From NCBI GenBank assembly GCA_963776275.1, contig CAVZMI010000037.1:1-60109 (forward strand): 60,109 nucleotides of DNA. The letters run 5' to 3'. The position numbers were made by a program, and so were the translations under genes. The DNA is from Ignavibacteriota bacterium. GTDB taxonomy: Bacteria > Bacteroidota > Ignavibacteria > UBA10030 > CAVZMI01. The notes under the pieces were generated by a model. It ran no database searches. It saw only the letters and a program-made list of their open reading frames with translations, and was not told the origin of the DNA. Of the stretch, positions 15,169 to 21,454 are shown one piece after another (the stretch's first letter is position 1; every line of letters begins with the position of its first letter).

Positions 15169-15258
15169 GGAGGGGTGCTAGAGTGGTCGATTAGGCCGGT
15201 CTCGAAAACCGGTGTACTCTTCTGAGTACCCAGGGTTCGAATCCCTGCCCCTCCGCCA
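15169..15258 (+). tRNA. tRNA-Ser(CGA)
   Basis: GGAGGGG/CCCCTCC acceptor; anticodon arm CCGGT-CTCGAAA-ACCGG; long variable arm; GGTTCGAATCC; GCCA end. Confidence 0.96.
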
Positions 15259-15533
15259 AACTACGCCAAGGCTTCGTTTGGCAGGCCCTCTTTATCAGCC
15301 TGACTGACGAAGCTCCGGGGAGGAGCGCAGTCCAGTCGCCAAACTACGCCAAGGCTTCGTTTGGCAGGCCCTCTTTATCAGCCTGACTGACGAAGCTCCG
15401 GGAGGAGCGTAGTCAGTCGCCAAACTACGCCAAGGCTTCGTTTGGCAGGCCCTCTTTATCAGCCTGACTGACGAAGCTCCGGGAGGAGCGCAGTCAGTCG
15501 CCAAACTGCGCCAAGGCTTCATTTGGCTAGCCC
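15255..15533 (+). repeat. Tandem array of ~81-bp units (3 full, 1 partial), each with two oppositely oriented REP-like hairpins
   Basis: Units start at 15255, 15338, 15419 and 15500: GCCAAACTACGCCAAGGCTTCGTTTGGC...GACTGACGAAGCTCCGGGAGGAGCGTAGTCAGTC. Confidence 0.93.
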
Positions 15534-15645
15534 AAATCGACTTCCATTTCTTTAAAATGAAACAGAAATTTGTGTGGTACACTATCCCATTGTAACCTCT
15601 TTTCGTTCTTATTATTAAAGCCCCCTCAAGAGATAGGACCAAGTT

Positions 15646-15930
15646 ATGTTAATTTGGAAAGTATATATTCTGAGAAATATCAGAAAGGGATTTATTTATA
15701 TAGGATCAACGAATAATTTGGATCGACGAGTCTTAGAACATAATAATGGTGTTGTTCAGTCGACCAAAGCATATCGACCTTTGGAAATAGCGGCCTACGT
15801 TGCTGTGGAATCGGAATCAAAGGCAAGAAAATTGGAGAACTATTCTAAGACAGGATCTGGGAAAGCAATATTGAAAAAAAGAATTTTAACCGATGAAGTT
15901 CCGCGGTCTGTCCACCGAAGTTCGCTGTAG
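15646..15930 (+). CDS. Small stand-alone GIY-YIG nuclease (UPF0213/YhbQ-like)
   Basis: VYILR...IYIGSTNNLDRRVLEHN...STKAYRP...ARKLE..KTGSG. Confidence 0.9.
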   Translation: MLIWKVYILRNIRKGFIYIGSTNNLDRRVLEHNNGVVQSTKAYRPLEIAAYVAVESESKARKLENYSKTGSGKAILKKRILTDEVPRSVHRSSL

Positions 15931-16419
15931 GCGAACGTAGGTGGAAACGGGACGTAGTCGTCCCTGCCCCTCCGCCAAACTGCGCCAAGGCTTCGTTTGG
16001 CAAGCCCTATACGTCAAACCTTACTGACGAAGCTCCGAAGGAGCGTAGTCAGTCGCTTGACTGCGTCCCTCGAGAAACATGTGGGACTTCGTCAAGCAGG
16101 CCTGTACTATGAAAAGGGACGGGACTTTTTATTCAACGAATTTCATTACCTACCCGCTCTGACGAGCCCGTCTCTCCCGACTAGTCCACCGATTCATCCG
16201 CCGGTCTATCCGCCTTAGTGGAACGGAGGCGGAAGTTCCGTTTTTCGTAACGAAAGCGGAAGGTGAACGTAGTTGAACGTTTGGCAGCTTATTACCAGAG
16301 AAGCGTGATTGTATAAAATAAAGTCCGGATATCGATATAGCTTATATCGTTCGAAACTATGTCGTATACTGTAATGAGAACGGTTATGAAATATTGAGAA
16401 TAAGAGAGGCGGTAGTAGT

Positions 16420-20297: not shown

Positions 20298-20349
20298 TAT
20301 GAAAATTATTCACTGAAAAACAACTTTTTCACAGGCTAATTGAAATATT

Positions 20350-20524
20350 TTAGAAGCTTAATGAACATTATCGCCCGAAAACACCATTCACTAGTACTAG
20401 AATCCCCTGAGTATTGATACATCAGGAAGAATTTACAGCGATATCTGAAGCTCGTAAAGGAGAAAGGTTCTTGAAAAGTGGTGCGGGTCGTTTCTGGCTT
20501 GATAAATTCTTAAAGAAAAGATAG
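20350..20524 (+). pseudogene. Degenerate GIY-YIG fragment (first copy)
   Basis: High similarity to 20910-21081 (TTGATACATCAGGAAGAATTTACA...AAGGTTCTTGAAAAGTGGTGCGGG); in-frame TGA; 5' part lost. Confidence 0.8.
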
Positions 20525-20536
20525 TCCGTATTAAAT

Positions 20537-20604
20537 GGAGAGATGCAGGAGTGTCCCGTCCCGTTTACATCGGGACGGGATGGCACGCCTGGAGAGCGTG
20601 TGTA
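20537..20604 (+). pseudogene. tRNA-Ser(GGA) 5' fragment with a palindrome in the D-loop
   Basis: GGAGAGATGCAGGAGTG-[TCCCGTCCCG-N7-CGGGACGGGA]-TGGCACGC-CTGGAGA-GCGTG; no adjacent T-arm. Confidence 0.7.
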
Positions 20605-20637
20605 TAAATAAATTGAGTGGATATTTCAAGAAAAACT

Positions 20638-20815
20638 GGAAGGGTGCGAGAGCGGTCTGAGCCGGAGGCTCATACGCCTCTGGCGTAGAATCGGCTCGCC
20701 TGGAAAGCGAGTTGGCGTCACAAGCGTCACGTGGGTTCTCAGCCACGCATTATGAATCGGTGAGGCTGATCCGCCTCCAAAGCTCAATCCAACGCGGCGG
20801 AGAATCCCACCCTCC
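20638..20815 (+). pseudogene. tRNA-Ser(GGA) copy interrupted by 30-nt (D-loop) and 63-nt (T-loop) inserts
   Basis: Matches 21195-21282 once inserts 20658-20687 and 20739-20801 are removed; the acceptor 3' strand is decayed. Confidence 0.85.
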
Positions 20816-20835
20816 TATTAAATTTAAATAAACCT

Positions 20836-21054
20836 ATGCACTATGTCTATGTATTGTGGAGTGAAAAGCTCAAAAAACGATATGTTGGTTCGGCAGGTAA
20901 TGTCTCTCAACGGCTCTATCAACATAATCATGGAAAAACACAATTCACTAGTCGCGGAATCCCCTGGGTTTTGATACATCAGGAAGAATTTACAACGACA
21001 TCCGAAGCACGTAAAAGAGAAAGGTTCTTGAAGAGTGGTGCGGGCCGTTTTTGA
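20836..21054 (+). CDS. Small GIY-YIG nuclease, possibly truncated by a Trp-to-TGA change ~9 codons from the end
   Basis: YVYVLWS...RYVGS...RLYQHN...FT....PW...EARKRERFLKSGAGR. The upstream copy has TGG where this one has TGA. Confidence 0.88.
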   Translation: MHYVYVLWSEKLKKRYVGSAGNVSQRLYQHNHGKTQFTSRGIPWVLIHQEEFTTTSEARKRERFLKSGAGRF

Positions 21055-21093
21055 CTTGATAAAATCTTAAAGAAAAGATAGCGAGTATTAAAC

Positions 21094-21160
21094 GGAGAGA
21101 TGCAGGAGTGTCCCGTCCCGTTTACATCGGGACGGGATGGTACGCCTGGAGAGCGTGTGA
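21094..21160 (+). pseudogene. tRNA-Ser(GGA) 5' fragment with D-loop palindrome (second copy)
   Basis: Near-identical to 20537-20604; offset 557 nt. Confidence 0.7.
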
Positions 21161-21194
21161 ATTAATAAACTAAGAGGATATTTCAAGAAAAACT

Positions 21195-21282
21195 GGAAGG
21201 GTGCGAGAGCGGTCGAATCGGCTCGCCTGGAAAGCGAGTTGGCGTCACAAGCGTCACGTGGGTTCAAATCCCACCCCTTCCG
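21195..21282 (+). tRNA. tRNA-Ser(GGA), intact
   Basis: GGAAGGG/CCCTTCC acceptor; anticodon arm CTCGC-CTGGAAA-GCGAG; variable arm; T-arm GTGGG-TTCAAAT-CCCAC. Confidence 0.92.
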
Positions 21283-21303
21283 CAATAGCGGATGAATATT
21301 AAC

Positions 21304-21392
21304 CGTGGGTTCTCAGCCACGCATTATAAATCGGTGAGGCTGATCCGCCTCCATCGCTAAATCCAACGCGGCGGAGAATCCCACTCTCTCCG
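21304..21392 (+). pseudogene. tRNA 3' fragment (T-arm and acceptor) with 63-nt T-loop insert
   Basis: GTGGGTTC-[21313-21375]-GAATCCCAC-TCTCTCC-G. TCTCTCC is complementary to GGAGAGA at 21094. Confidence 0.75.
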
Positions 21393-21454
21393 CTATGAAA
21401 AAGATTTTCATTGTTCCTTTTCTTACTGATCTCTTTTAAAAACGAAGGTAATAG

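Follow-up and report, generated by a model that had tools for sequence, protein, structure and literature searches.

Small double-hairpin inserts in a disabled tRNA-Ser copy of an Ignavibacteriota bacterium: candidate mobile elements with a TTY^RAA target

Double-hairpin elements (DHEs) have been described from the mitochondria of Allomyces, other chytrids and Schizosaccharomyces. Together with GC clusters and repetitive hairpin elements, they are described as short, GC-rich sequences of two stem-loops, present in many dispersed copies between genes and inside RNA genes, thought to be mobile and without flanking duplications (PMC10085805, PMC2800124). Here, sequences of a similar form are reported from a bacterium. 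They were noticed in a 60,109-nt stretch of DNA of an Ignavibacteriota bacterium (contig CAVZMI010000037.1; the window, below), where a disabled copy of a tRNA-Ser(GGA) gene, copy 1, contains inserts of 30 and 63 nt close to a gene for a small GIY-YIG nuclease.

Three other systems are relevant. Rickettsia palindromic elements (RPEs) are palindromic selfish repeats found in frame in unrelated housekeeping genes, where the added peptide is tolerated (PMC10969869). Ssn is a single-domain GIY-YIG nuclease of ~94 aa (CDD family cd10448) that cuts single-stranded DNA beside a ~30-nt hairpin repeat, which occurs genome-wide and also flanks the ssn gene (Chenal et al. 2025, PMC11893778). It recognizes the folded single strand, and its repeat-gene-repeat layout resembles an insertion sequence (PMC11893778). 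The free-standing GIY-YIG homing endonuclease SegB of phage T4 is encoded in a tRNA gene cluster, has a 27-bp site that contains the T-arm motif, and spreads with neighbouring tRNA genes (PMC2330249).

The inserts of the window are best explained as tiny, quasi-palindromic, non-autonomous mobile elements, bacterial DHEs, which target TTY^RAA and probably move as single strands, a GIY-YIG nuclease being the best candidate enzyme. The probability of this explanation as a whole is put at about 0.65.

Two inserts in a disabled tRNA gene

The window belongs to an Ignavibacteriales metagenome-assembled genome (MAG) of 3.70 Mb in 38 contigs with 45% G+C (G000), which was compared with a genome of the same genus (G001). 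The anatomy of the locus was worked out from a three-way alignment including G001, exact-string placement and a GIY-YIG profile search (PF01541), and these revealed two tandem units. Copy 1 repeats the intact tRNA-Ser gene with 100% identity in two stretches, its first 20 nt at 20638-20657 and the 51 nt after these at 20688-20738. Since these uninterrupted stretches flank positions 20658-20687, the 30 nt between them are an insertion, and the alignment reads unambiguously as a clean one at GGTC^GAATC with nothing duplicated. This 30-nt DHE is absent from unit 2 and from G001, where the flanks are identical. In the T-arm of copy 1, CGTGGGTTC (20730-20738) is followed by the 63-nt insert (20739-20801) and then by GAATCCCAC (20802-20810); a canonical T-arm is restored when the 63 nt are removed. 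Both inserts had been placed at these sites by a sequence-only reading of the window, and string placement against the intact tRNA-Ser found every coordinate correct. As single-stranded DNA, both fold into two abutting hairpins (30-mer: -10.2 kcal/mol, z = -3.96), and the T-arm with the 63-mer folds as a three-way junction (z = -2.1).

The same reading had noted that the 63-nt block recurs at 21313-21375. It does (59/63 identical), in a displaced 3' tRNA piece called fragment F, and F with its insert has an ortholog in G001 (L010 1575-1637); a fourth copy is located on C15:149710-149772. The recurrence does not represent a second insertion. The segments 21304-21384 and 20730-20810 are direct repeats (81 nt, 95%) that bracket the GIY-YIG gene and the intact tRNA, and because the two 63-nt copies share these flanks they are duplicates, not separate insertion events. 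They are paralogues that go back to one insertion, later duplicated. The inserts of the window are two events, not three.

The sequence-only reading had also offered, as a less likely alternative, an intron-like insert that is removed from the tRNA transcript and leaves the interrupted gene functional. The inserts do lie in loop positions (D-loop 20a/20b, T-loop 56/57), their compact folds leave the tRNA helices intact, and removing them restores canonical arms. However, copy 1 has no pairing acceptor stem, its 3' acceptor strand being degenerate (CCTCCTA vs CCCTTCC in the intact gene), and fragment F is only a T-arm fragment. Copy 1 is also missing the 43 nt between two CGTGGGTTC repeats, and 20638-20814 was not called as a tRNA by ARAGORN or Rfam. 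An intact tRNA of the same anticodon is found 400 nt away, and the region has no match at E <= 1 among the intron and ribozyme families of Rfam. A search of sequencing runs for window 20300-21450 listed no RNA run; two DNA runs shared a small part of its words. The DHE is moreover read through in frame in protein genes, with the same design on both strands, which points to DNA and not to RNA. The intron explanation is therefore hardly credible: the DHE is a DNA-level selfish mini-insert, not a tRNA intron.

Design, target and distribution of the elements

The DHE consists of two abutting T-NN-GCC-loop-GGC-N'N'-A hairpins, usually 30 bp long, and on either strand the first loop is purine-rich and the second pyrimidine-rich. 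A structure-only scan of G000 (3.7 Mb), whose sole requirement was a pair of perfect 6-bp stems side by side, each with a 3-nt loop, returned 17 sites where we estimate ~0.2 by chance, and 17/17 had T-NN-GCC-N3-GGC-N'N'-A twice. A relaxed scan detected 19 DHEs (0 in the reversed genome), and single hairpins of the same design number 70 vs 4 in the control. When longer loops are allowed, G000 contains 25 double hairpins, always with a spacer of zero between the hairpins and, in 6 of them, with a conserved 19-nt loop. Across 41 Ignavibacteriales genomes, this long-loop form was matched only within the genus of G000, 7 times in G000 and 3 times in G001, plus one likely chance match. The strict 30-nt pattern is present in 23 of these 41 genomes with 0-17 copies each, and in every reversed control the count is 0.

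A global scan of one genome per prokaryote species (185,579 species genomes) matched the 30-nt pattern in at least 125 stretches. The hosts among the matches listed are mostly Patescibacteria, Ignavibacteria, Kiritimatiellae, Omnitrophota and gammaproteobacterial MAGs. The long-loop pattern matched at least 120 stretches; none among the matches listed has the hairpin design, and these are chance hits, mostly in GC-rich genomes. Five genomes of other phyla contain 24 copies (a 0.4-Mb Patescibacteria assembly), 46 (a Kiritimatiellae MAG), 13, 8 and 2, with 0 in the controls. Many of the listed copies in the two richest are identical in sequence, and each genome of another phylum that was examined has a dominant DHE variant. 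Such same-sequence copies are what amplification inside each genome would produce. The DHE is shown to multiply within genomes, and to be kept only where it is harmless, in intergenic DNA, disabled tRNA copies and probable surface loops of proteins.

The hairpins are maintained as structures. Covariation was analysed in all 102 distinct sequences among the matches listed, using the NN positions that the pattern leaves free. Pair 3/13 is Watson-Crick in 86/102 (expected 40.9) and pair 18/28 in 89/102 (expected 45.4), each with four pair types, and complementary free NN pairs are roughly double the number predicted for independent columns. A compensatory change is also visible between orthologous DHEs of G000 (C6:51489-51518) and G001 (C7:212919-212948), whose surroundings are 92% identical: a G:C to C:G stem flip, made of two transversions, has kept the pairing. 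The sequence-only reading had seen a two-stem layout with compensatory changes in the two inserts of the window; folds and stem covariation bear this out.

The target was derived from the 95 listed matches of the global scan in which the two stems pair and the flanks extend for 10 nt or more. On the left, T is found at -3 in 53 copies and at -2 in 77, and T or C at -1 in 79; on the right, A or G occupies +1 in 77, A +2 in 69 and A +3 in 60. Beyond -3 and +3 the flanks are flat, and +4 and +5 are not conserved. The insertion target is thereby shown to be a short symmetric TTY^RAA, with insertion between Y and R and no duplication. The T-loops of tRNAs (TTC^GAA, TTC^AAA) and the D-loop of tRNA-Ser (GTC^GAA) are natural instances of it. 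In G000, the flanks are TC|GA in 12 of 25 copies and TY^RA in 14/25, vs 2.3% of genome positions.

The claims of the sequence-only reading about the site were partly upheld. It had proposed TC^GAATC as the motif and a flank logo of other copies as a check: the flanks are non-random and insertion is site-specific, but the general target is the shorter TTY^RAA, and among the G000 copies only the 14 mentioned have TY^RA flanks. It had also remarked that the T-loop of the intact tRNA-Ser, TTCAAAT, lacks the motif. This is the sequence, yet it confers no immunity. T-loops reading TTCAAAT are used as well, with copies at TTC^AAATCC (C5:59410 and a C21:75334-75380 fragment), and so the intact tRNA-Ser is not protected by its T-loop. 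More plausibly, cells hit in the working tRNA copy are lost.

Insertions away from tRNAs are seen in protein genes. For 43 of the 95 copies, the surrounding frame stays open over 100 nt or more to either side. Among the 50 longest frames (matches listed), 9 match Pfam at E <= 0.001, with 7 matched stretches running across the element, and 4 score above the Pfam curated cut-off: AdoHcyase, tRNA-synt_2 (class II), tRNA-synt_1 (class I) and ADH_zinc_N_2 (zinc-type dehydrogenase). The synthetase-type hosts are aspS-like and valS-like, with no tRNA piece around the element. Its 30 bp make ten codons, read in frame as SAxGGSAxGG or PPxADPPxAE, and the commonest stem, TCCGCC, carries no stop. In G000 itself no convincing genic copy was seen.

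The AdoHcyase (ahcY) match covers 89 residues vs 79 profile positions, and 78 of 80 matches to the fragment are ~30 nt shorter than the query. An alignment of 12 of these 80 matches (the 10 best and 2 archaeal ones) places DHEs in two Doudnabacteria at two sites six codons apart, in frame and without target duplication: ..CCGTTT^AAAAAT.. in one genome and, six codons upstream, ..GATTTC^AAAAAG.. in the other. In the other 10/12 both sites are empty, TTT being followed directly by AAG, GAA or AAA. On this alignment the ahcY cases are two independent, clean, in-frame insertions at TTY^RAA. Two such insertions with empty sites mean that the DHE is mobile DNA and not a tRNA-specific or RNA-level feature. 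Two further claims of the sequence-only reading therefore hold. Target duplication is lacking at the tRNA and ahcY sites alike, and the inference of a sequence-specific non-autonomous element of ~30 nt agrees with the many host phyla, the covariation, the non-random flanks and the two ahcY insertions.

GIY-YIG genes and the enzyme behind the insertions

Table 1. Features of the tRNA-Ser(GGA) locus, with positions in the window.
Feature	Position	Strand	Basis
Decayed GIY-YIG remnant, unit 1; N-terminal part lost	20369..20524	+	alignment, translation
Pseudo-tRNA-Ser 5' half, unit 1; D-loop with a distinct 27-nt hairpin (20554-20580, 10-bp stem)	20537..20602	+	string placement
Disabled tRNA-Ser(GGA) copy 1; 5' part as in the intact gene, fused to a T-arm fragment	20638..20814	+	alignment, string placement
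30-nt DHE at GGTC^GAATC in the D-loop of copy 1	20658..20687	.	alignment, fold
Long-loop DHE of 63 nt with 19- and 20-nt loops; T-loop of copy 1, site GTTC^GAATC	20739..20801	.	fold, pattern scan
Small single-domain GIY-YIG nuclease open reading frame, 72 aa	20836..21054	+	PF01541, 54 bits; generic GIY-YIG matches only
Second pseudo-tRNA-Ser 5' half, unit 2; 27-nt hairpin at 21111-21137	21094..21159	+	string placement
Intact tRNA-Ser(GGA); T-loop TTCAAAT	21195..21283	+	ARAGORN; Rfam RF00005, 53.8 bits
Fragment F, displaced 3' tRNA piece, T-arm only, with second 63-nt DHE (21313-21375)	21304..21384	+	alignment

Unit 1 of the locus (Table 1) consists, in order, of a decayed GIY-YIG gene, a pseudo-tRNA-Ser 5' half with a 27-nt hairpin, and copy 1. 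In unit 2, a GIY-YIG open reading frame (ORF) is followed by a hairpin-bearing tRNA 5' half, the intact tRNA and, 20 nt downstream, fragment F. Segments 20378-20657 and 20935-21214 are 90.4% identical. The unit-1 GIY-YIG remnant has in-frame internal stops, yet its C-terminus, ...GAGRFWLDKFLKKR*, is intact; where the ORF of unit 2 stops at TGA, the remnant has TGG. The pseudo-tRNA half at 20537-20602 runs from the acceptor and D-stem through the hairpin to an anticodon arm with a GGA anticodon.

The 27-nt hairpins belong to a second hairpin family of G000, which has a 10-bp stem, starts with T and ends with A (8 copies vs 0 in the reversed genome). Besides window 20554-20580 and 21111-21137, its sites are C5:59111, C5:59363, C7:81909, C12:65153, C18:196591 and C20:138806, and several copies are placed in the D-loop, anticodon stem or T-loop of tRNA pseudo-copies.

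Other loci of G000 also combine tRNA pieces with hairpins, some of them beside GIY-YIG genes. At window 15169-16060, tRNA-Ser(CGA) (15169-15258) is followed by about four tandem ~97-nt repeats, each ending like a tRNA 3' end, then by a 94-aa GIY-YIG ORF (15646-15930) and a 3' tRNA fragment (~15945-15978) whose T-loop is replaced by another hairpin sequence. At C10:40586-42050, four nearly identical units of 349 nt come after tRNA-Met. In each of them a GIY-YIG ORF extends into a copy of tRNA-Met, where one 15-nt hairpin takes the place of the D-loop; in the last copy the T-arm contains a hairpin as well. Three tRNA-Met pseudo-copies on C10 keep intact T-arms, as seen in a scan for unoccupied T-arm-like hairpins outside tRNA genes that was too loose to be informative (98 vs 44 in the control). 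Downstream of tRNA-Thr(CGT), at C5:58900-59700, tRNA-Thr pieces form a mosaic in ~252-nt repeats. Hairpins of four or more kinds break up the pieces, among them two double hairpins with long loops, at TCC^AAATCC and TTC^AAATCC. A T-arm fragment after the GIY-YIG gene by tRNA-Pro(TGG) (C20:153650-153720) has a different, 48-nt hairpin at TTC^GAATCC.

There are 13 small GIY-YIG genes in G000. Eight adjoin tRNA genes, and the same eight have hairpins of the DHE design within 500 nt. At each tRNA-adjacent GIY-YIG locus of G000, the D- or T-loop of a tRNA fragment or pseudo-copy is disrupted by a hairpin, not always a double one. Of the 64 strict DHEs in six Ignavibacteriales genomes, 9 have a GIY-YIG match no more than 500 nt away (expected 0.32). 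The triad of tRNA, GIY-YIG gene and DHE also occurs in several other Ignavibacteriales genera, with a caveat that the query included tRNA flanks and was biased towards such contexts. In a Patescibacteria genome, a tRNA-Asn locus (L278) consists of a pseudo-copy with a DHE, an intact tRNA, a GIY-YIG gene and GTTC-DHE-GAATCC plus a 3' end, the flanking DHEs being at 1332-1361 and 1751-1780. The five DHE-rich genomes of other phyla have 3-17 GIY-YIG matches each. The proteins are single-domain PF01541 matches in open frames of ~80-170 aa, with only generic similarity to NCBIfam and PDB entries. At another locus (L265; G045 C1:55134-55163), a DHE is found inside an open frame that holds a GIY-YIG domain, with a second GIY-YIG frame adjoining.

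The association of GIY-YIG genes and DHEs is real but partial, and most copies are solitary. This bears on an alternative in which the DHE is a built-in part of a tRNA-targeting GIY-YIG cassette, serving either as its terminal or attachment repeat or as a plug by which the T-arm recognition site of a displaced copy is lost; it would then spread by homing only, and solitary copies would be leftovers. In the window, and likewise at the tRNA-Asn locus, a T-arm repeat with DHE stands on either side of the GIY-YIG gene and intact tRNA, tandem GIY/DHE arrays exist in G019 and G012, and every tRNA fragment beside a GIY-YIG gene of G000 has a hairpin-disrupted loop. The enrichment near GIY-YIG genes is ~28-fold, and the homing enzyme SegB recognizes a T-arm motif (PMC2330249). 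However, 86% of the strict copies (55/64) are more than 500 nt from any GIY-YIG match, and no GIY-YIG frame was found within 1.5 kb at 15 of the 16 DHE-centred loci of other phyla. Copies sit in frame in ahcY, in aspS-like, valS-like and other genes without tRNA pieces, both ahcY insertions are bare 30-bp inserts at plain TTY^RAA, and the intact tRNA beside the cassette keeps an unprotected T-loop. An element confined to the cassette is accordingly unlikely.

Another candidate for the mobilizing activity is a Y1 tyrosine transposase of the IS200/IS605 or RAYT type, which would insert single-stranded hairpin DNA and make the DHE a repeat like the repetitive extragenic palindromic (REP) sequences. 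There are 9 Y1_Tnp matches in G000 and matches in 4/5 of the DHE-rich genomes of other phyla. Y1 chemistry makes no target duplication and uses hairpin ends, as is also summarized in the paper on Ssn (PMC11893778). Against this, no DHE flanks any of the 8 inspected G000 Y1 loci, while unrelated hairpin families do; 6/8 of these loci have no DHE within 2.5 kb, and the two nearest DHEs stand on one side only, at distances of ~0.9 kb and 2 kb. No Y1 match was found in the 0.4-Mb Patescibacteria assembly, an incomplete genome with 24 DHEs. The DHE target is symmetric, whereas a 5' target is enough for IS200/IS605 elements. DHEs also lack the GTAG head that is typical of REPs, and many copies are genic, not extragenic. 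Movement by a Y1 enzyme is thus quite improbable.

Two other hairpin families of G000 are found beside Y1 genes. One has the DHE stem design with a 13-nt loop and occurs at C12:68240-69406 and 22 other sites (23 vs 2 in the control); two copies flank the Y1_Tnp match C12:68627-68878 and another is beside C23:193133. Together with Y1, this family looks like an ordinary REP/RAYT pair. The other comprises eight copies of a 38-nt hairpin with 156-nt spacing at C23:248610-250274, on both sides of the Y1_Tnp match C23:249303-249548.

For the preferred reading, mobile DHEs with a GIY-YIG nuclease as candidate enzyme, the following course of events can be proposed. The disposable tRNA copies that tolerate the DHE are probably products of a small GIY-YIG nuclease cassette that settled at tRNA-Ser(GGA); the two T-arm repeats with their DHEs bracket this cassette and its working tRNA. 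The near-symmetry of element and target could reflect a symmetric protein acting on duplex DNA or, more likely in our view, a process on single strands, in which the element would fold and its TTY/RAA flanks would pair to hold the junction. The folded single-stranded DHE would then be cut and rejoined by a hairpin-recognizing enzyme supplied in trans. The multi-copy, single-domain, Ssn-like GIY-YIG family is the best candidate, because Ssn cuts beside a hairpin repeat and SegB recognizes a T-arm motif; host ligation or repair might complete the insertion.

Several observations weigh against this reading. The global sample consists of the matches listed and is restricted to 3-nt loops and GCC/GGC cores. 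In G000, 11 of the 25 copies have no TY^RA flanks, and 7 of the 11 belong to one repeat family with longer shared flanks, being part of a larger repeat, so some copies spread as passengers of larger repeats; 5 other copies share another flank. No donor identical to the 30-nt insert is present in G000 (the best match is 92% over 26 nt), and the copies there differ in their stems, so that copy-and-paste from one master is not evident in that genome. G001 was considered as an empty site that would date the 30-nt insertion and was rejected. Its locus is a single unit that switches from unit-1-like to unit-2-like inside the GIY-YIG gene. This chimera of the two units is a deletion derivative, and as such it cannot date the insertion. 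Elsewhere, a 41-nt difference between G001 and G000 at C27:77906-77916 (a DHE plus an 11-nt repeat of the target) fits insertion or deletion between CCCTTC repeats alike.

The GIY-YIG part of the explanation meets further difficulties. Apart from the 55 distant copies, only 8 of the 77 GIY-YIG matches in the six Ignavibacteriales genomes have a strict DHE within 500 nt. GIY-YIG and DHE counts per genome correlate with rho 0.61 over the 41 related genomes, a value uncorrected for relatedness, and some genomes have GIY-YIG matches and no DHE at all (G037, 10/0; G030, 8/0). In other phyla, a GIY-YIG frame was found at 1/16 DHE-centred loci and DHE-type hairpins at 2/12 GIY-YIG-centred loci. For every candidate, a role of the enzyme in DHE movement is something that we infer. 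DNA is hydrolysed by GIY-YIG enzymes, which are not known for any joining activity, and the insertion step is therefore lacking in the GIY-YIG model. A bolder version would make the DHE the smallest self-propagating DNA element known, moved by bare Ssn-like GIY-YIG nucleases that cut folded single strands at TTY^RAA and at the element ends while host enzymes seal. Element and nuclease would then make up a parasite of two parts, present across phyla, which reshapes tRNA loci and adds linkers of ten residues to essential proteins of ultra-small bacteria. In this full form the idea is doubtful.

Significance and comparison with known systems

If the explanation is true, very different bacterial phyla harbour a common insertion element of 30 bp whose 6-bp target is defined; it is far smaller than the described MITEs (miniature transposable elements with inverted repeats), REPINs or RPEs. 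It would account for the odd 'decorated' pseudo-tRNAs beside tRNA genes, for hitherto unexplained insertions of ten residues (Ser/Ala/Gly or Pro/Ala/Asp) in Patescibacteria housekeeping proteins, and for part of the hairpin clutter that breaks assemblies. DHEs would also be a natural substrate set for single-strand-specific GIY-YIG nucleases, making it testable whether such nucleases drive DNA mobility. Masking the motif in annotation pipelines could improve tRNA and gene calls. Searches of the literature by sequence, peptide string and keyword returned no description of bacterial DHEs, although subscription journals were mostly outside their coverage and absence is unproven; the sequence and peptide strings matched only cloning primers and linkers, and the keywords led to mitochondrial DHEs, RPEs and reviews of MITEs.

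The DHE lacks a defining feature of each of REP/RAYT, MITE, SRM and tRNA introns. Like REP/BIME-RAYT systems and the IS200/IS605-derived PATEs, it is a small hairpin repeat with no target duplication and a presumed single-strand mechanism; unlike them, it stands in no positional relation to Y1 genes, its target is symmetric, and some of its copies are genic. It differs from a MITE in having no target-site duplication at the tRNA and ahcY sites, and no longer parent element with DHE ends was seen.

The GIY-YIG gene of the window stands beside tRNA genes, as that of SegB does. SegB is a larger protein with a DNA-binding part, whereas the proteins here are a bare domain of ~72-100 aa, and the available account of SegB describes no hairpin element with it. 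As with Ssn and its repeats, DHEs occur on both sides of a GIY-YIG gene (window 20836-21054 and L278), though at a minority of the genes only. In the accessible text, the NTS/SRM repeats of Ssn are single hairpins with oriented flanks, whereas the DHE is double, and Ssn is described as modulating transformation, not as inserting DNA; the words 'tRNA', 'Patescibacteria' and 'Bacteroid' do not appear in that text (PMC11893778). The published SRM consensus has 6 matches in G000 vs 15 in the reversed genome, which is not above chance, with 0 within 1 kb of the 13 small GIY-YIG genes and 0 overlapping the 19 DHEs.

With RPEs, the DHE shares the nature of a palindromic repeat in frame in protein genes, in phyla other than that of G000. 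RPEs measure ~100-150 bp and, as far as their source is available, are limited to Rickettsia, while the DHE has 30 bp, many host phyla and a defined 6-bp target. The likeness to mitochondrial DHEs extends further, since by the available description of the fungal elements both are two adjacent GC-rich stem-loops forming one unit, dispersed, also present inside genes and without flanking duplication. The bacterial DHE differs from the organellar one in its host, its fixed 30 bp, its T-NN-GCC design, its TTY^RAA target and its cross-phylum occurrence, as well as in its in-frame copies in housekeeping protein genes and its link to tRNA-associated GIY-YIG cassettes. In form and behaviour, the DHE has its nearest counterparts in the double-hairpin elements and GC clusters found in mitochondria of fungi; its in-frame copies come nearest to RPEs, and its possible enzymology to Ssn/NTS.

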